In this document: positions 1,430 to 24,582 of the stretch, piece after piece
Layout: each line of letters starts with the position of its first letter
Numbering within the stretch: the stretch's first letter is position 1
DNA from: Escherichia phage JLBYU31
Length of the DNA: 64,000 bases
Reading direction: 5' to 3' (one strand)
Sequence record: OK272473.1
The notes under the pieces: generated by a model
The model's input: only the letters and a program-made list of their open reading frames with translations
Told to the model about the DNA's origin: nothing
The model's database searches: none
Program-made: the position numbers and the translations under genes

Positions 1430-1854
1430 TGCTTCTGATCCCTGAAACTCATGAATTAGTTCTCGAGAATGTCGAAGCACTTATTCCTGAAGCACAGGGT
1501 CGCTTTGACGAATTGTCTTCTGCTTTAAATAAAGACGATATAAATACAATTGTCGAGAATATGCTTGATGATGAAACTGATTTAGCAGTTGCATTAGCTT
1601 CTATTAATGAAAATATGCCGTTAAATGAATTCATCGTTAAACATGTTTCTGCCCGTGGTGAAATTACTCGCACTAAAGATCGCAAAACACGCGAACGTAA
1701 TGCATTTCAAACCACTGGGCTGTCTAAAGCAAAACGTAGACAAATTGCTCGCAAAGCTACCAAAACGAAGATTGCCAATCCAGCAGGTCAATCTCGTGCT
1801 CAGCGTAAGCGTAAAAAAGCTCTTAAACGCCGTAAAGCATTAGGATTAAGCTAA
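1429..1854 (+). CDS. 68: prohead core protein gp68
   Basis: 141-aa ORF, start overlaps gp67 stop (TAATG); basic C-terminus; T4 gene order. Confidence 0.85.
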
Positions 1855-2492
1855 TGAATGAACCCCAATTACTAATTGAAACTTGGGGTCAACCTGGCGA
1901 AATTATTGATGGTGTGCCAATGCTTGAATCCCACGATGGAAAAGACTTAGGTTTAAAACCTGGTTTATACATCGAAGGAATATTCATGCAAGCGGAAGTC
2001 GTCAATAGAAATAAACGTCTTTATCCAAAACGTATATTAGAAAAAGCGGTAAAAGACTATATTAATGAGCAAGTTTTAACTAAACAAGCTCTCGGAGAAT
2101 TAAATCATCCTCCACGCGCTAATGTTGACCCGATGCAAGCCGCTATCATTATAGAAGATATGTGGTGGAAAGGAAATGACGTATACGGACGAGCTCGTGT
2201 TATTGAAGGTGACCACGGTCCTGGAGATAAATTAGCAGCTAATATTCGTGCCGGATGGATTCCAGGAGTTTCTTCTCGTGGATTAGGTTCATTGACTGAC
2301 ACAAATAAAGGTTATCGTATCGTAAACGAAGGATTCAAATTAACTGTAGGTGTTGATGCAGTATGGGGTCCAAGTGCTCCAGATGCATGGGTAACTCCTA
2401 AGGAAATTACCGAATCACAGACGGCGGAAGCCGATACAAGTGCCGATGACGCCTATATGGCTCTCGCAGAGGCCATGAAAAAAGCGTTATAA
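1854..2492 (+). CDS. 21: prohead core protease gp21
   Basis: 212-aa ORF, ATG overlapping gp68 stop; size and position match T4 gp21. Confidence 0.85.
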   Translation: MNEPQLLIETWGQPGEIIDGVPMLESHDGKDLGLKPGLYIEGIFMQAEVVNRNKRLYPKRILEKAVKDYINEQVLTKQALGELNHPPRANVDPMQAAIIIEDMWWKGNDVYGRARVIEGDHGPGDKLAANIRAGWIPGVSSRGLGSLTDTNKGYRIVNEGFKLTVGVDAVWGPSAPDAWVTPKEITESQTAEADTSADDAYMALAEAMKKAL

Positions 2493-4999: not shown

Positions 5000-6283
5000 A
5001 TGGCTAAAATCAACGAACTTCTGCGCGAATCAACCACAACGAATAGCAACTCAATCGGTCGCCCAAATCTCGTTGCTTTGACTCGCGCTACCACTAAATT
5101 AATATATTCTGACATTGTAGCAACGCAAAGAACTAATCAACCTGTTGCTGCTTTTTATGGTATCAAATACCTTAACCCAGACAATGAATTTACATTTAAA
5201 ACTGGTGCTACTTACGCTGGCGAAGCTGGATATGTAGACCGAGAACAAATCACAGAATTAACAGAAGAGTCTAAATTAACTCTCAATAAAGGCGATTTAT
5301 TCAAATATAATAATATCGTTTATAAAGTATTAGAAGATACACCATTTGCTGATATTGAAGAAAGCGACTTAGAGTTAGCTCTTCAGATTGCAATCGTTCT
5401 TTTAAAGGTTCGTCTATTTTCTGATGCAGCATCAACAAGCAAATTTGAAAGCTCTGATAGCGAAATTGCAGATGCTAGATTCCAGATTAATAAATGGCAA
5501 ACCGCCGTTAAATCTCGTAAACTTAAAACTGGTATCACAGTTGAATTAGCACAAGATTTAGAAGCAAATGGATTCGATGCTCCTAATTTCTTGGAAGATT
5601 TGCTTGCAACTGAAATGGCAGATGAAATCAATAAAGATATTCTGCAGTCTTTGATTACAGTATCAAAACGTTATAAAGTTACAGGAATTACTGATACTGG
5701 ATTCATTGATTTGAGTTATGCATCTGCACCTGAAGCTGGTCGTTCATTATACCGAATGGTATGTGAAATGGTTTCACATATCCAAAAAGAATCAACTTAT
5801 ACAGCAACGTTTTGTGTTGCTTCAGCTCGTGCCGCTGCGATTCTTGCTGCATCAGGTTGGTTAAAACATAAACCAGAAGATGATAAATATCTTTCACAAA
5901 ATGCCTATGGGTTCTTAGCTAATGGTTTACCGCTTTATTGCGATACTAACAGCCCATTAGATTATGTAATCGTTGGCGTAGTAGAAAATATCGGTGAAAA
6001 AGAAATTGTTGGATCAATTTTCTATGCTCCGTATACAGAAGGTCTCGACTTAGATGACCCTGAACATGTTGGTGCATTTAAAGTTGTGGTTGATCCAGAA
6101 AGCTTACAACCGTCTATCGGTTTATTAGTTAGATATGCTTTATCAGCAAATCCTTATACCGTAGCAAAAGATGAAAAAGAAGCAAGAATAATTGACGGTG
6201 GAGACATGGATAAAATGGCGGGTCGTTCAGATTTGTCTGTTTTATTAGGTGTTAAATTACCAAAAATTATTATTGATGAATAA
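5000..6283 (+). CDS. 24: capsid vertex protein gp24
   Basis: 427-aa ORF, paralogous layout to gp23, T4 gene order. Confidence 0.9.
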   Translation: MAKINELLRESTTTNSNSIGRPNLVALTRATTKLIYSDIVATQRTNQPVAAFYGIKYLNPDNEFTFKTGATYAGEAGYVDREQITELTEESKLTLNKGDLFKYNNIVYKVLEDTPFADIEESDLELALQIAIVLLKVRLFSDAASTSKFESSDSEIADARFQINKWQTAVKSRKLKTGITVELAQDLEANGFDAPNFLEDLLATEMADEINKDILQSLITVSKRYKVTGITDTGFIDLSYASAPEAGRSLYRMVCEMVSHIQKESTYTATFCVASARAAAILAASGWLKHKPEDDKYLSQNAYGFLANGLPLYCDTNSPLDYVIVGVVENIGEKEIVGSIFYAPYTEGLDLDDPEHVGAFKVVVDPESLQPSIGLLVRYALSANPYTVAKDEKEARIIDGGDMDKMAGRSDLSVLLGVKLPKIIIDE

Positions 6284-12494: not shown

Positions 12495-12891
12495 ATACTC
12501 TATTACTGGAAGCCAGTTGTAGTTTTATCTGCTCAATATCATCAGGGTTATCGATGACTGAAAAGCGTATTTCTACTATCAAAGTATAATCATCATAAAC
12601 CGGTATTACATTAACTGCTAATTTATCAATACGTGGCTCATAGTTTCTTACTGCGCTTTCGATATTACGCTCAACCGTGTCAGCAGTAAGAGGAGTCATA
12701 TTCTCAAAAAGTTGGTCAGATAAATCACATCCAAATTCAGGGTCAAACGGTCTTGAACCTTTTCTTGTTGTAATAATTCCTAAAAGACTATTTTTAATTG
12801 ACCTTAATCCAAGTGATCTTGAAACGTCTTTGTTCCAATCCATTTTCATCTCTGGGTCAATATCAGAATAAAGCTTATTAATATTTGCCAT
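12493..12891 (-). CDS. 25: baseplate wedge protein gp25
   Basis: 132-aa ORF, ATG overlaps gene 26 stop; T4 position. Confidence 0.9.
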   Translation of the reverse strand: MANINKLYSDIDPEMKMDWNKDVSRSLGLRSIKNSLLGIITTRKGSRPFDPEFGCDLSDQLFENMTPLTADTVERNIESAVRNYEPRIDKLAVNVIPVYDDYTLIVEIRFSVIDNPDDIEQIKLQLASSNRV

Positions 12892-13517
12892 TACAATAGC
12901 TCAAAGAATTCTTTGAGTCCTCTTATTACATGAGCGTGAGTTTTTCCACACTCTGGACACTTAATTGGAACAGCCAAATAAACGGTAGGCTTTAAAAGCA
13001 TATCTTTTATAGCTACAATATCTGACTCTGTGATGATAGAATATAAATCTTCCAGTTCTTTTTCATTTAAGTCTTCAACTGGAATGCTTTCCCCGTTAGC
13101 ATGAATCGTTTCTATACATGATACTATCATGTGGGCTATATTTTTATCATCAAAAATTTTAGGGTAATGGAATTTAATTTTAATGTCACCCAGTGTATAC
13201 CAGAGGTCTTCTGGTGCATCTATTTGTGTATGTAATAGATTTATATGGGTTGGTATTTCAGTTCCACAGGTGCACTTCCAGGAGTTTTCGTGATTAACTT
13301 CACCAAGAGAATGTGCCCATAAATGAATCAACAATAGTTCTGATTCTTGGCGGTTTAAATCTTTTGCATTTGTGCAGTCTTTGATTAGCTTTTTAACAAT
13401 TACTTCTACGGAACCATTATTTTTGGCAGTAATAAGTTCTAGATATTCTTTAAGCGTGAATGCGCGACAATTGATTATTTTAGAACCAACTCTCACATTA
13501 AATTTGTATTCATACAT
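12891..13517 (-). CDS. 26: baseplate hub subunit gp26
   Basis: 208-aa ORF, T4 position. Confidence 0.85.
12900..12924 (-). promoter_or_regulatory. split ribosome-binding site of gene 25: SD AAGAGGA, perfect 18-nt palindromic hairpin CTCAAAGAA/TTCTTTGAG, then AUG
   Basis: Hairpin between SD and AUG read in sequence; matches the arrangement described for T4 gene 25 translation initiation. Confidence 0.6.
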
Positions 13518-13538: not shown

Positions 13539-13546
13539 TATTTATA
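13539..13546 (-). promoter_or_regulatory. late promoter TATAAATA (minus) for genes 26/25
   Basis: Part of palindromic TATTTATAAATA; 22 nt upstream of the gene 26 ATG. Confidence 0.55.
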
Positions 13547-13550
13547 AATA
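13543..13550 (+). promoter_or_regulatory. late promoter TATAAATA (plus) for genes 51/27
   Basis: Exact TATAAATA 18 nt upstream of the gene 51 ATG, SD AAAGGAG. Confidence 0.6.
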
Positions 13551-13567: not shown

Positions 13568-14317
13568 ATGGCAAACATTATTCGTTGTAAATTACCAGAT
13601 GGTGTTCATCGTTTTAAACCATTTACGGTAGAAGATTATCGAGATTTTTTGTTAGTTCGAAACGATATAGAACATCGGTCACCACAAGAACAAAAAGAAA
13701 TAATTGCTGATTTAATTGCCGATTATTTTGGAGACTATCCGAAGACTTGGCAACCATTTATATTTTTGCAGGTATTTGTAGGGTCAATAGGTAAAACTAA
13801 AGTACCGGTCACATTTGTATGTCCAAAATGTAAAAAAGAAAAGACAGTTCCATTTGAAATATATCAAAAAGAATTAAAGGAACCTGTTTTTGATGTAGCT
13901 AATGTTAAAATTAAATTAAAGTTTCCTTCTGAGTTTTATGAAAATAAAGCAAAGATGATTACTGAAAATATTCATTCTGTTCAAGTAGATGAAATATGGT
14001 ATGATTGGAAGGAAATTAGCGAGTCCAGTCAAATAGAACTAGTTGATGCCATCGAGATAGAAACATTAGAAAAAATTCTCGATGCAATGAATCCTATTAA
14101 TTTAACTCTACATATGTCATGCTGTAATAAGTACATTAAAAAATACACTGATATAGTAGATGTGTTTAAGCTATTAGTTAACCCAGATGAAATATTTACT
14201 TTTTATCAAATTAATCACACACTCGTAAAAAGTAATTATAGCTTAAATTCAATAATGAAAATGATTCCTGCCGAGCGCGGATTCGTATTAAAACTGATTG
14301 AGAAGGATAAACAATAA
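13568..14317 (+). CDS. 51: baseplate hub assembly protein gp51
   Basis: 249-aa ORF, T4 position. Confidence 0.85.
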
Positions 14318-19807: not shown

Positions 19808-19810
19808 CAA

Positions 19811-19841
19811 TGGGGACCTTTCGGTCCCCATGTTTTTATTT
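19811..19841. terminator. hairpin TGGGGACC-TTTC-GGTCCCCA followed by TGTTTTTATTT, between convergent gene 54 and minus-strand ORF
   Basis: 8-bp stem, T-run on plus side. Confidence 0.75.
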
Positions 19842-20126
19842 ACGGAATGAAATAAAAGCAGCAACTGAAGCAACTAAACTGTCTTCAATATAAACTTCAA
19901 TTTTTACCGGAGCTTCTGACTCAAATTTACCTGTTACTACACCTTGGAAAATGCTTTCAGTCTGTTCTGGCTTTGAAAAATTTTCAGAAGGAAAAATTCC
20001 GAACTTTTTATCTGTTCCAAAAATTTTGATAAATTCATCGTAAACTGCTTCATTAAAAGCATTATCAGCAGGAATAACGCCTTCAACTACAAGTTCTTGA
20101 CCTAAAAAGCGCAAAGAAGATTTCAT
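19836..20126 (-). CDS. hypothetical protein (96 aa)
   Basis: ATG preceded by SD GAGGAA and the early-promoter repeat. Confidence 0.65.
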   Translation of the reverse strand: MKSSLRFLGQELVVEGVIPADNAFNEAVYDEFIKIFGTDKKFGIFPSENFSKPEQTESIFQGVVTGKFESEAPVKIEVYIEDSLVASVAAFISFRK

Positions 20127-20133
20127 TTTGTGT

Positions 20134-20187
20134 TCCTCATGTTATGTCAGTAAGATTACTATAACACAACACGAGGGACTTGTAAAC
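20134..20187. repeat. 54-bp perfect direct repeat, copy 1 (copy 2 at 35952-36005)
   Basis: Identical 54 nt at both loci, checked base by base. Confidence 0.9.
20158..20187 (-). promoter_or_regulatory. early promoter GTTTAC-N18-TATAGT with TGn extended -10 (minus strand)
   Basis: Matches T4 early promoter architecture; located directly after the stop of the upstream Alt paralog. Confidence 0.6.
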
Positions 20188-22244
20188 TACATTTTGAACT
20201 TTTTAGACATTCCGTTGATGTTAACCAAAGAAGCCAAGATTTGAGAAACTTCGTTTTCCTCTTCTTTTGATTCTTCTACAAGGAATTGATTAAATCCAGC
20301 CATTGGACGAACTTCACCAGTTTCCATTAGATGGTCGCCATCATATACCGATTCCTCTAATTGTTCAGAAGGAGGAACGATTGTACCTTCTATTAGATAC
20401 TTGTTATAAGCAGTTTCTTTCATAAAGTACGTGCTCACTTTATTAATCTTCAGTAAAATTCCACGCGGTAGAATAACTTCAGCTTCTGATGGAAATCCTG
20501 ATAAATGACCTGGAACGATAACTTTGATTCGCTCAGCTCCTTTAATTACCATACCCACGCTAGTTTCAGCATCTTCATTAGCATATGTAGAATGACTACC
20601 CATATGCATCAAATCTTCTGCATCAACGGAACCTTCTCCTTCGCCAGAAAATACTGCACCGGAATCATCTAGAGCCATATAGTTTTTACCATGCTCACCG
20701 AAGATATTTGGTTTAAGCGATGTGGATACGAAGTTCTTGAAATAGAACATTTTGTTTTCAATGTTATGACGCAAAGTTTTAAAGGTAACTTCTTGCCCAC
20801 GATAAAGAGTAGTTCCTGGAGGAAGAACTGAACCTTTAGCGAATGCAGAATCCAACGTCTCAATATGTTTAATAGCTCGTTCCATATATTCTTCACGGGT
20901 AGAATCTGGTTTACCCAAGAGGAACGAGTTCATTTCAACATATGAATCTGCACAATAATCTTCAATTACATCAGACTCAGCCTGAGTCAGTCCTTTTGGA
21001 GTTACTTCGGTGCTTGCGTATTCATACGCCTGGGCAGCAGATTCATTAATCAATTTATAAATGCCATTCATGACAAATTGAATAATAGCTGTCTTTTCAT
21101 CTGGCGTAGCTTTAGAACCTTTAACTAAATCATTAATAATTTTCTTAATAACATCAAAGCTATTAGAAATATTAATGTCAGCAAGATCGCTTAAAATTTT
21201 ATCAGTTTTATAATCAAAGAATTCTTTATTCTTTAAATATTCTTGAGAACCTTGATATGTTATATCGCTCTGCAACTTGATGGATGGATCACGTAAACGT
21301 GCATGGGCTAATGCAATATGATTTCGGAAGTTTTCTAGTTCATAATCGCTAGATTTAAAACGAGAAGCGCTCCTCATACCACCGATAGCTCCTTTGTTGA
21401 AGTTTGAACCAATCTGAATAACGCCAGAGTTCATTGGTCCTTCTGCTTTATATACCGGAACTTTAGATTCAAACTCTTGATATTTCTTAGCAGCGAAGCT
21501 ATCACCCTGAAGTGAAGCATCAACAGTAGAATATTGAGCTTGTGCTGCTAATCGACGACTAATTTTAGTTTTCTGAATAACAGCTTGATCCGTGCGCTTA
21601 TCATTTTCTAAGGCAATAGAAGCAGCAACAGCAACAGCTTTAGGAACAGCATTACCTGTTTTAACGTCTACATAAACATCACCAACCTTTGATTCAACTT
21701 TTGTGAATAACTCAGTTGAAATAGGAGGTACACCTGGAATGTCTTCTAAATTGGCATTTTTACGGTAAACCATAATATATGCATATTTCTTATCATAGTC
21801 CCAGATTTCCTTTAAAAGAACATATCGGCCTGCTCCTTTAGTACGTACTAAACGGTCAGCAATAACTTGCATTTGACGAGCTGCGCCATTTGTTTTACTC
21901 TTTAGTACGCGGAATAAGCATGCATCAATTTTATACTGTTTCATTGTTTGAAGAGCAGTATCAAAAACAGCATTAATGACGCCAATTGGATTTCCACCCA
22001 AGTTTTTAAGCTTAACTAATGATAGTTTCTCATTAACACCTATCATTACGATATGCATCATTTTGTCGCCTGGCTTAACGTTTTTATTCGTATCACCGCC
22101 AGAGGTGTATGTACAAAATCTAAATCCAGGAAGCACGCTTTCTTCACCGGCTTGAATAGCAAAAATTTGTGGTATTTTATGCTTAGGATTTAAGTTAACA
22201 ACCGGCGCCGAAGCGCCGTCAAATAATTCTGTAATAAGTTCCAT
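20187..22244 (-). CDS. Alt-family ADP-ribosyltransferase paralog (685 aa)
   Basis: N-terminus MELITELFD shared with the adjacent paralog; C-terminal R-S-E motifs (LYRGQ, FVSTSL, EAEVILPRG). Confidence 0.8.
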   Translation of the reverse strand: MELITELFDGASAPVVNLNPKHKIPQIFAIQAGEESVLPGFRFCTYTSGGDTNKNVKPGDKMMHIVMIGVNEKLSLVKLKNLGGNPIGVINAVFDTALQTMKQYKIDACLFRVLKSKTNGAARQMQVIADRLVRTKGAGRYVLLKEIWDYDKKYAYIMVYRKNANLEDIPGVPPISTELFTKVESKVGDVYVDVKTGNAVPKAVAVAASIALENDKRTDQAVIQKTKISRRLAAQAQYSTVDASLQGDSFAAKKYQEFESKVPVYKAEGPMNSGVIQIGSNFNKGAIGGMRSASRFKSSDYELENFRNHIALAHARLRDPSIKLQSDITYQGSQEYLKNKEFFDYKTDKILSDLADINISNSFDVIKKIINDLVKGSKATPDEKTAIIQFVMNGIYKLINESAAQAYEYASTEVTPKGLTQAESDVIEDYCADSYVEMNSFLLGKPDSTREEYMERAIKHIETLDSAFAKGSVLPPGTTLYRGQEVTFKTLRHNIENKMFYFKNFVSTSLKPNIFGEHGKNYMALDDSGAVFSGEGEGSVDAEDLMHMGSHSTYANEDAETSVGMVIKGAERIKVIVPGHLSGFPSEAEVILPRGILLKINKVSTYFMKETAYNKYLIEGTIVPPSEQLEESVYDGDHLMETGEVRPMAGFNQFLVEESKEEENEVSQILASLVNINGMSKKFKM

Positions 22245-22247
22245 GAT

Positions 22248-24344
22248 TTATCCTTGAACGAACTTGTAAGGCATGTTTGTAATATCTATGCAAGACGCAA
22301 TAATTCCAAGAGATGATTCTACTTTCTGTTTAACGTTTGATGAAACAAATGATGCAAAGTCAACTCTGTCTTCTATTTCAATATCACCTGTCATTGCAAC
22401 CAATTCACCAGTTTCCATTAAATGGTCTCCATCATAGATTACCGATTCGGTGAGCTCTTCCGTAGTCATAACTTCAGCTTGAATGAGTTTTGTATTATTA
22501 GATGTTGTTCCGTCATTATTAGAAGCATCAGTTATTTTATTAACTTTGACCATCAATCCACGCGGTAGAATAACTTCAGCTTCTGTTGCTATTCCGAGAC
22601 TTCCTGGATATACAACATTAACTTTATGAGCTCCATCAATTGCCCATCCTATTTGAACTTTAACGTATTCAGGATTTTCTTTATACGCTCTTATTTCGTT
22701 TGGATTAATAGTTATTCCTTCTTCATTTTTATCAACTGTTAATTCATTGCGAGCTTCTGGTTCTAAAAGACCAATACCAGCATGTGTAATTCCAAAACGT
22801 CCAAAAATGATAGGAGTTAAAGAAGTAGATACAAAATTTCTGAAGTAGAACACTTTATTTTTAACTAACGCTTCATATATAGGAGCAGTCATACTTTGAG
22901 CACGATAAACTGTAATGCCTTCTGGTATACGGTCACCATTTTCAAAAGCTGAATCTAAGTTATTTATAGCAGATTCAATTTCTTTTTCACTCATTACATC
23001 ATATCGTTCTGGATTGTAACGACCTAAAAGAAGATTATTGATGTCAGTATATCCTGAACCGCAATATTCTCTAATGCCATGCTTTTGTGATGGAGTATAT
23101 TTAGAACCATCGCGGGCAATAGTAATATCAATCATTGGACCAGCACCAATTCCAGAAAAACTGTAAATCATTCGTTTGAGGAATTTAGTTTTTGCTGCGT
23201 TCCAGGAATTTTTAGTTATTTCTTCCCAGACTTCATCTGGTTGTCCTTTACGATTTTTATTATGATTAGCAAGCCATTTATCTTTATAATCTTCAAAGAA
23301 TTGATTTATAGCTGCTGCGTATTTCTCTAAACATTTTATTGAAGTAGTTGGTTCATTTTTAATTGCATTAAAAATTACTTCTTTAATTTTTTCTGAAACT
23401 TCACCGACTTGACTCATTGGAAAGAATTTATAATCATAGTGAAGTTCATCTGCCGTTCCTTCAGCAATAATTTTTGCTGCCTTTGTTTTAGAAGCTAATG
23501 AATTAATTCCAATTTTCATTTCTTCTGCTTCGGGAATTAAAGGTGCAGTAGCTGGTTTATTAAAATTAGCTGCTGTAGATTCATACTTCTGGAATAATTC
23601 ACTTTCAAATCTAGAAGATTCCAATGACTGACTTTGTGCAATTGCTCTACGGGAAATTTTAACTTTAACGATTACAGCTTGGTCAGAACGTTTATCGTTT
23701 TCTTGCGCAATAGATGCAGCAATTGCTTCATTTTTGGTTACTTGAGCTCCAGTATCTTTATTAATATAAACATCACCGACCTTCGATTCAACCTTAGTAA
23801 AGAGCTCGGTACTAATTTCCGGAACCCCTGGAATGTCTTCTAGTGATACATTTTTGCGATGTATAAGAATATATGCATACTTTTTATCATAATCCCAGAG
23901 TTCCTTAAGAAGGACGTATCTGCCACCTGAACGACTACGGATAAGTCTATCAGCAATAACTTGAATTTGTCGAGCTTGGCCAGCAGTTTTAGACTTAAGA
24001 ATACGAAGCATACAAGCATCAATTTTATATTGACGCATTGTTTGCATTGCAACAGTAAAAACTGAATTGATATAATTAATTGGGCTTGGACCAAGACCTT
24101 TTAATTTAGCAATTGAACCTTTAGCAGTTAATGTAAAAGGAACAATATGCATCATTTTGTCGCCCATTTTTAAATCACGATTAGTATCACCTCCAGATGT
24201 ATAGGTACATAAACGAAAGCCTGGTTGTTCAATTGCATCATCAACATGAACTGAAAAAATTTGTGGTATTTTCTTCTTTGGATTTAAGTTTGTAATCGGA
24301 AGAGTAGTATCTTCGTCAAATAATTCTGTAATGAGTTCCATCAT
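22248..24344 (-). CDS. alt: Alt ADP-ribosyltransferase (698 aa), head-packaged internal protein
   Basis: N-terminus MELITELFD; R-S-E motifs (VYRAQ, FVSTSL, EAEVILPRG); late promoter immediately upstream; position next to ligase gene. Confidence 0.8.
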   Translation of the reverse strand: MMELITELFDEDTTLPITNLNPKKKIPQIFSVHVDDAIEQPGFRLCTYTSGGDTNRDLKMGDKMMHIVPFTLTAKGSIAKLKGLGPSPINYINSVFTVAMQTMRQYKIDACMLRILKSKTAGQARQIQVIADRLIRSRSGGRYVLLKELWDYDKKYAYILIHRKNVSLEDIPGVPEISTELFTKVESKVGDVYINKDTGAQVTKNEAIAASIAQENDKRSDQAVIVKVKISRRAIAQSQSLESSRFESELFQKYESTAANFNKPATAPLIPEAEEMKIGINSLASKTKAAKIIAEGTADELHYDYKFFPMSQVGEVSEKIKEVIFNAIKNEPTTSIKCLEKYAAAINQFFEDYKDKWLANHNKNRKGQPDEVWEEITKNSWNAAKTKFLKRMIYSFSGIGAGPMIDITIARDGSKYTPSQKHGIREYCGSGYTDINNLLLGRYNPERYDVMSEKEIESAINNLDSAFENGDRIPEGITVYRAQSMTAPIYEALVKNKVFYFRNFVSTSLTPIIFGRFGITHAGIGLLEPEARNELTVDKNEEGITINPNEIRAYKENPEYVKVQIGWAIDGAHKVNVVYPGSLGIATEAEVILPRGLMVKVNKITDASNNDGTTSNNTKLIQAEVMTTEELTESVIYDGDHLMETGELVAMTGDIEIEDRVDFASFVSSNVKQKVESSLGIIASCIDITNMPYKFVQG

Positions 24345-24364
24345 ATCCTCTCTAGTGTTTATTC

Positions 24365-24372
24365 TATTTATA
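24365..24372 (-). promoter_or_regulatory. late promoter TATAAATA (minus) upstream of alt
   Basis: Plus TATTTATA 21 nt upstream of the alt ATG. Confidence 0.55.
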
Positions 24373-24377
24373 AAATT

Positions 24378-24395
24378 AAAGGCCCGAAGGCCTTT
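24378..24395 (-). terminator. hairpin AAAGGCC-YUCG-GGCCUUU at end of ligase operon
   Basis: 7-bp stem overlapping the stop of the 62-aa ORF, followed by AAUUUUAUAAAU. Confidence 0.6.
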
Positions 24396-24582
24396 AATAA
24401 TCTATTGGTAAGAGAGTACGATATATTTCAAACTTTGGACCTTTTTCATAGGCATCAAATGTTTCTGTGAATTTATTATAAGCATATGCATCTATAAATT
24501 CAATCATGATTTGTGATACAGAAGTAGAAACATCTCCACCTTCTTTTTGAGCCACGACAATTGTTTCTAAGTAAGCTTTCAT
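24394..24582 (-). CDS. hypothetical protein (62 aa)
   Basis: ATGA overlap with the ligase stop. Confidence 0.6.
   Translation of the reverse strand: MKAYLETIVVAQKEGGDVSTSVSQIMIEFIDAYAYNKFTETFDAYEKGPKFEIYRTLLPIDY

Follow-up and report, generated by a model that had tools for sequence, protein, structure and literature searches.

A 64,000-nucleotide (nt) stretch of Escherichia phage JLBYU31 (sequence record OK272473.1; hereafter the window) was analyzed at the locus of two adjacent genes, alt and alt.-2, which encode related proteins of the Alt ADP-ribosyltransferase (ART) type. The window is a segment of a Tequatrovirus (T-even) genome, and its gene order is canonical, with head genes including that of the gp21 protease, baseplate genes 25-54, the alt cluster, ligase, and tail-fibre genes. 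The 4.8 kb around alt and alt.-2 are 99.1% identical to Escherichia phage vB_EcoM_Kelasse, and at least 80% of this region was found in 365 phage records. The pair is at its canonical location, flanked by gene 30/alt.1 and alt.-3/gene 54, and the identity of both genes from sequence, as alt and an intact paralogue named alt.-2 in phage RB14, is virtually certain. The genes and their putative expression signals are as follows.

22248..24341, minus strand: alt, Alt ADP-ribosyltransferase, 697 amino acids; an alternative ATG at 24344 gives 698 amino acids (open reading frame 22248..24344)
20187..22244, minus strand: alt.-2, full-length Alt paralogue, 685 amino acids
24365..24372, minus strand: T4-type late promoter box TATAAATA, exact match, 20 nt upstream of the first alt ATG
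24347-24350, minus strand: Shine-Dalgarno GAGG of alt, between the late promoter box and the alt start codons
22251..22255, minus strand: Shine-Dalgarno AAGGA of alt.-2, inside the last alt codons
22250-22242, minus strand: alt/alt.-2 junction TAA-atc-ATG, reading caAGGAtaa-atc-ATG, with a 3-nt gap at 22245-22247
22961..22968, minus (coding) strand: second TATAAATA, within alt, about 720 nt upstream of alt.-2; possible internal late promoter, unverified

A preliminary description of the locus, made from the sequence alone, had recognized adjacent minus-strand open reading frames (ORFs) of 685 and 698 amino acids, both beginning MELITELFD...NLNPK.KIPQIF, and the ORF list agrees, with an extra leading Met on the upstream frame that stems from a tandem ATG. 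The 698-codon frame exists; the second ATG (24341, 697 amino acids) is nevertheless the most likely start, because just 2 nt separate GAGG from the first ATG and because RB14, Kelasse, and T2 annotate the second. The spacing of 3 nt between the two genes was also correctly described, and the junction is the same in all six phages compared. The signals for late expression of the pair, all of which are consensus matches, comprise TATAAATA, the 3-nt gap, and a Shine-Dalgarno sequence belonging to alt.-2 itself. A late promoter had been ascribed to the upstream copy only. The box at 24365-24372 is indeed present, but its exclusivity is not strictly established, given the second TATAAATA inside alt. 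This internal box is kept in window-type alt alleles (5/5) and is absent from phage G3G6, where a T4-type alt is accompanied by a retained alt.-2; it is a possible late promoter for alt.-2.

Sequence comparison identifies both products as Alt/VIP2-type R-S-E ADP-ribosyltransferases. Pfam PF03496 (ADPrib_exo_Tox; Alt/VIP2 family) matched alt with 129.3 bits (1.5e-37) and alt.-2 with 71.9 bits at a cut-off of 23.4, and phrog_802, the Alt group, matched both over their full length (alt residues 1-696, 7e-273; alt.-2 residues 1-685, 4e-257). The domains and catalytic codons map as follows, together with the helical regions discussed below.

22461..23210, minus strand: alt ADP-ribosyltransferase domain, residues ~378-627
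22902-22904, 22821-22829, and 22575-22583, minus strand: alt catalytic codons R480, S505-T-S507, and E587-x-E589, respectively
20385..20999, minus strand: alt.-2 ADP-ribosyltransferase domain, Pfam span, residues 416-620
20799-20801, 20718-20726, and 20478-20486, minus strand: alt.-2 catalytic codons R482, S507-T-S509, and E587-x-E589, respectively
22941..23651, minus strand: alt all-helical middle, residues ~231-467, from AlphaFold2 (AF2) secondary structure
20835..21557, minus strand: alt.-2 all-helical middle, residues ~230-470, from AF2; most divergent at 239-418

In an alignment of 17 sequences, covering all Alt types retrieved, the Arg, the two S-T-S serines, and the two E-x-E glutamates were invariant, in the right order and spacing, and both window proteins carry YRA/YRG, FVSTSL, and EAEVILPRG. 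The ADP-ribosyltransferase fold of the R-S-E clade is likewise present. The earlier claim of an intact R-S-E signature in both copies was thereby upheld, as neither lacks a catalytic residue. Arginine specificity in this clade, which includes the C3-like toxins, is marked by E-x-E as opposed to Q-x-E. In T4 Alt, the substitution E577A at an E-x-E glutamate yields an inactive protein (PMC11404850; residue numbers in that paper run one above ours, the second Glu being 576 when counted from MELITE). Judged by its sequence, alt.-2 very probably encodes an active enzyme. Both genes are labelled "Alt-like RNA polymerase ADP-ribosyltransferase" in dozens of RefSeq records.

Other family searches gave little. 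NCBIfam returned zero matches for any of the four proteins searched, and a PDB sequence search returned none for alt.-2 and only weak CdtA matches for alt, with no solved Alt structure in the PDB copy searched. A MuF relationship, which has been proposed for other Alt/VIP2 enzymes (PMC9503650), was unsupported by Pfam, and no N-terminal MuF (Phage_Mu_F) domain was found. Pfam PF26846 appears in the precomputed annotations of all full-length Alt proteins (matches P0001-P0120) and was absent from the local Pfam scan.

AF2 models of alt and alt.-2 display the same domain order. Their shared four-part layout consists of the six-residue propeptide MELITE, an alpha/beta N-domain (~12-225), an all-helical region (~230-470) followed by a C3/VIP2/Vis-like R-S-E ART core (~480-625), and a tail of 55-65 residues after L-x-E. 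Overall identity between the two proteins is 41-44% (BLASTP 41%, E 7e-159), and its distribution is uneven. In 40-residue blocks, identity is 55-75% over residues 1-240, 12-28% over 241-400, 30-48% over 401-520, 8% over 521-560, and 30-48% beyond; the block at 521-560 corresponds to the loop linking S-T-S to E-x-E, and the ART core, or catalytic domain, is 30-48% identical. The divergent middle reported in the preliminary description was recovered at residues 241-400, but divergence is not confined there, as the C-terminal two-thirds are about 30% identical overall, with islands at the catalytic motifs and the C-terminal cleavage site.

Both middles (~230-470) are all-helical in the models and have a similar number of helices. 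Nonetheless, hhalign profile-profile comparison of the two middle-region types (~240-418) detected no similarity (probability 0.2%, from shallow profiles with numbers of effective sequences [Neff] of 2.4-2.8). When the alt.-2 middle (residues 239-420) was searched against 1.84 billion representatives, no relatives outside Alt proteins were detected. The sole match in that search, P0121, a cysteine-rich repeat protein of 1147 amino acids with eight copies of a short DYxLxNF motif, was judged spurious. The residues directly before E-x-E also differ: alt has GIATEAE, alt.-2 has GFPSEAE, and T4 Alt has APSNEME. This segment, the ADP-ribosylating turn-turn (ARTT) loop, helps set substrate choice in C3-like toxins. 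A divergent helical region combined with different residues before E-x-E makes different substrate ranges plausible, and we rate the chances that alt and alt.-2 have distinct targets as about even.

The case for packaging rests on comparison with T4 Alt, a prohead-core protein present in ~40 copies per head (PMC9026906). Mass spectrometry has established that gp21 cuts it at ITE-6 and LTE-619, with the loss of 63 C-terminal residues (PMC5694885). The corresponding predicted features of the window proteins are the following.

24324..24341, minus strand: alt N-terminal propeptide MELITE with gp21 motif ITE-6, same as T4 Alt
22227..22244, minus strand: alt.-2 N-terminal propeptide MELITE, same as that of alt
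22251..22445, minus strand: predicted alt C-terminal propeptide, residues 633-697, after LTE-632, which aligns with T4 LTE-619; low-confidence AF2 tail
20190..20351, minus strand: predicted alt.-2 C-terminal propeptide, residues 632-685, after LEE-631; predicted local distance difference test (pLDDT) score <40 for 629-685

Both the N-terminal ITE-6 and the aligned C-terminal L-x-E are present in both window proteins, and the proposal that ITE fits the gp21 cleavage pattern is borne out by the T4 cut at the same motif. Across the 17 diverse Alt proteins, neither the L-x-E Glu nor the YDGD..E.GE and final KF beyond it vary, which points to a conserved role for the tail, for example in targeting, tethering, or auto-inhibition. 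The mature forms of alt and alt.-2 are predicted to weigh 70.1 and 69.2 kDa, respectively; applied to T4 Alt residues 7-619, the calculation returns the published mature mass of 68.2 kDa. With both gp21 sites kept in both proteins, packaging and injection of both are likely, and we hold with reasonable confidence that alt.-2 is among the proteins packaged and injected.

A tblastn census found the 685-residue protein at full length and at least 95% identity in about 396 phage records, including T2, RB14, RB18, and RB51. Among six phages, the ratio of non-synonymous to synonymous substitution rates (dN/dS) was 0.02-0.07 for alt.-2 and 0.04-0.09 for alt, and pairs of alt.-2 genes differed at 50-98 synonymous versus 3-24 non-synonymous positions. 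These values indicate that alt.-2 is under strong purifying selection and is constrained at least as much as alt.

The preliminary description had left undecided whether the second copy corresponds to a named T4 ORF. Alignment to T4 Alt and to both small ORFs beside it provided the answer, as alt.-2 corresponds to T4 alt.-1 and alt.-2 combined. The T4 record lists alt (682 amino acids) followed by alt.-1 (61 amino acids) and alt.-2 (67 amino acids). T4 alt.-1 is 88% identical to residues 1-61 of the window alt.-2 and 59% to Alt, and T4 alt.-2 is 82% identical to residues 62-115 of the window alt.-2 and 55% to Alt. PHROGs 23015 and 15247 likewise match alt.-2 more strongly than alt. At the DNA level, blastn of T4 against the window located a missing segment:

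20207..21896, minus strand: alt.-2 segment deleted in T4, ~1.69 kb

T4 DNA is 96-97% identical to the window on either side of the missing 1.69 kb, and imperfect 9-nt direct repeats, CTAAAGAGT and CTAAAAAGT, border the junction (20206-20214 and 21897-21905 of the window; ~5105-5113 in T4). Codons ~116-683 are deleted in T4, and a 1-nt frameshift further upstream additionally splits the N-terminus. The unusual C-terminus of T4 Alt.-2 (SKCSLQVPRVVL) is the 3' end of the intact gene plus intergenic DNA, read out of frame. A curator note in the T4 GenBank record describes alt.-1/alt.-2 as an ancient duplication covering only the initial part of alt. The alignments indicate that T4 alt.-1 and alt.-2 are the deletion and frameshift remnant of a full-length paralogue and that T4 is the derived state. 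Since T4 lost alt.-2 by the 1.69-kb deletion, the T4 reference under-represents the tandem pair.

The upstream gene also varies among phages, and the window and T4 carry different alleles of it:

22452..23621, minus strand: alt central stretch unlike the T4 allele, ~1.2 kb, 39-78% DNA identity, with flanks 93-100% identical

At the DNA level, identity to T4 alt is 93-99% over nt 1-720, 90-100% over the last 200 nt, and 39-78% between; the proteins are 100% identical over residues 1-240, 18-65% identical centrally, and 88-94% identical C-terminally. The window allele is common to T2, T6, RB10, RB14, and PP01 and occurs at 90% identity or more in 318 records. G3G6 combines a T4-type alt with an intact alt.-2, and phage sutha has a window-type alt with a single matched place in its record, which suggests that sutha is without alt.-2. 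The alt allele and alt.-2 thus appear to assort independently. Exchange between the paralogues is indicated by the metagenomic alt.-2 variants P0003, P0004, and P0006, in which alt-type N-terminal tracts of ~55, 110, and 225 residues sit on an alt.-2 body (window equivalent 21570-22244); these nested tracts identify gene conversion between alt paralogues. Recent alt/alt.-2 conversion in the window itself was considered and rejected, as no long near-identical DNA tract was found (the best were 31 nt, 94% identical, and 23 nt, 96% identical).

The explanation that we favor, and consider probable, is that alt and alt.-2 are a tandem pair whose products are co-expressed, packaged, and injected and differ in their substrates. 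Late in infection, gp55-directed transcription from TATAAATA at 24365-24372 would yield one mRNA carrying both genes, and alt.-2 would be translated from its own AAGGA, starting 3 nt past the alt stop. Both precursors would enter the prohead core, where gp21, encoded in the same window (1854-2492), would trim both ends, at ITE-6 and at LTE-632 (alt) or LEE-631 (alt.-2), to give proteins of ~70 and 69 kDa. Both would then be ejected with the DNA and mono-ADP-ribosylate host arginines within the first seconds of infection. The known targets of T4 Alt include RNA polymerase alpha and others; the non-alignable helical regions and the difference between GIATEAE and GFPSEAE would probably confer different substrate ranges.

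Three other accounts of alt.-2 were weighed. It might be a redundant duplicate without an independent function that is decaying into a pseudogene, as happened in T4; deletion has removed it from T4 and T4-type phages, which are fully viable, and alt itself is non-essential. This reading was rejected on dN/dS and is highly improbable, as the 685-codon ORF is intact in ~396 records, the values of 0.02-0.07 and of 50-98 synonymous versus 3-24 non-synonymous differences per pair speak for constraint, and the catalytic and cleavage motifs are all invariant. An active but unpackaged alt.-2, acting late in the producing cell or reaching virions only in traces, is unlikely, although the capsid-targeting signal of Alt is undefined and the classical head-protein counts come from T4, which is without alt.-2. 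Against it stand the MELITE propeptide shared with alt, an N-domain 55-75% identical to that of alt, and the conserved C-terminal L-x-E, YDGD..E.GE, and KF tail motifs. In addition, alt.-2 is predicted to be co-transcribed with alt from the late promoter, and the conversion tracts exchange the N-terminal regions of both genes with the ORF undisturbed.

Packaging of both enzymes against the same targets, as dosage or backup, would accord with the E-x-E that both carry, which signifies arginine specificity in the clade, and with the many proteins that T4 Alt modifies by itself. It fits poorly with helical regions between which no similarity is detectable, with ART cores merely 30-48% identical, and with differences in the S-T-S/E-x-E loop and the residues before E-x-E. 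Purifying selection acts on both genes despite such divergence, and a dosage copy should be homogenized by conversion along its whole length, not N-terminally alone. We regard shared targets as a rather poor prospect.

Co-packaging with differing substrates is therefore preferred, and several points count against it. Searchable literature yielded no virion proteomics or enzymology of alt.-2. The capsid-targeting sequence of Alt lacks experimental definition, so the conserved termini are suggestive, short of proof. Confidence in the AF2 models is moderate (pLDDT 73-75), their basis being a 17-sequence alignment, and the shallow middle-region alignments cannot tell extreme divergence from replacement. 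Finally, alt is non-essential in T4, and T4 thrives without alt.-2, such that any contribution would be conditional.

Conserved ends around an exchangeable centre can be read as resembling the logic of polymorphic toxins. Joined with the preceding results, this leads to a broader proposal, which we put forward tentatively and hold to be somewhat short of an even chance. Here, alt.-2 would be a second capsid-delivered ADP-ribosyltransferase, injected by most natural T-even phages and lost from laboratory T4 by deletion, and it would act on host targets of its own, which might belong to anti-phage defence. With a central stretch of alt that can be swapped and gene conversion that leaves the N-terminal regions interchangeable, the alt locus would be polymorphic-toxin-like, with constant delivery ends and exchangeable target-recognition and catalytic modules.

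Several features were observed in the surroundings of the pair. A UUCG-tetraloop hairpin (AAAGGCC-TTCG-GGCCTTT) lies at 24375-24392 (minus strand), between alt.1 and the alt late promoter; the terminator scan gave no flag, and the hairpin is probably a terminator or stabilizer of upstream early transcripts. The gene alt.1 (24394-24582, minus strand, 62 amino acids) matches Pfam PF24647, "Phage blade protein," at 7.5e-29. Downstream lies alt.-3 (19836-20126, minus strand, 96 amino acids; Pfam DUF5498). A promoter-like site of its own, of sigma-70/early-like type (TTTACA-17-TATAGT), is located at 20158-20186 (minus strand), directly after the alt.-2 stop. Mutants of T4 Alt.-3 with a C-terminal extension evade the CmdTAC defence system (PMC11618068). 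Genes 54 and alt.-3 converge on a 9-bp-stem hairpin at 19810-19831, which received a terminator score on each strand. Elsewhere in the window, overlapping TATAAATA boxes on opposite strands (13539-13546, minus; 13543-13550, plus) are flanked by diverging ORFs (12891-13517, minus; 13568-14317, plus) and may form a back-to-back late promoter pair.

Both the tandem pair, which is annotated in hundreds of records, and the idea of target diversification are already known. Tandem alt paralogues were described in 2006 for T4 (alt.-1/alt.-2), RB49 (ORF183c), and 44RR (ORF187c/188c), a full-length duplicate included (PMC1524935). In 2026, two paralogous Alt-like proteins of 43.29% identity were reported from 6phi13 and SHFML-11, with functional divergence and an expanded target range proposed (PMC13600099); this concerns the same pair of paralogues, so the "arsenal diversification" put forward in the preliminary description is not new. 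What is clarified here is the origin of T4 alt.-1/alt.-2 as a deletion remnant, the purifying selection on alt.-2, the retention of both gp21 sites, and the mosaicism of the alt locus with conversion between paralogues. Knowledge of injected T-even enzymes comes mostly from T4, a single-Alt phage. Should alt.-2 be packaged and act on targets of its own, infection by T2, T6, and most Tequatroviruses of environmental or therapeutic origin would start with an extra host-modifying enzyme that T4 lacks. This could help to explain why T4 and its relatives differ in taking over the host or in their sensitivity to bacterial defence systems.

Among known systems, the closest counterpart of the upstream gene is T4 Alt (gpAlt, NP_049811), a capsid-packaged NAD:arginine ADP-ribosyltransferase. 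The window alt is its orthologue and is alike in locus, promoter, architecture, ITE-6/LTE, and R/S-T-S/E-x-E; it differs in length (697 amino acids, versus 682 in T4) and in its central 390 codons, spanning the helical region and ART core, which represent another allele. RB14 alt.-2 (YP_002854530) and the second copies of T2, RB18, RB51, wV7, and others are equivalent to the window alt.-2, with 98.5-100% amino acid identity, the same position and 3-nt junction, and no substantive difference. T4 alt.-1/alt.-2 (NP_049810, NP_049809) share the gene origin of the window alt.-2 but are truncated and frameshifted. The tandem paralogues of 44RR and RB49 are adjacent like the window pair but reside in other genera. 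T4 ModA and ModB are likewise phage R-S-E ADP-ribosyltransferases for host take-over; unlike Alt, they are small, early-expressed, and unpackaged and have neither N-domain nor propeptides. The R-S-E toxins C3, VIP2, iota, CDTa, and Vis are more distant, at 14-25% sequence identity to the phage enzymes, which differ from them in having a phage-specific N-domain, the helical region, and propeptides removed by a protease, and in being delivered through capsid and tail without a binding component.

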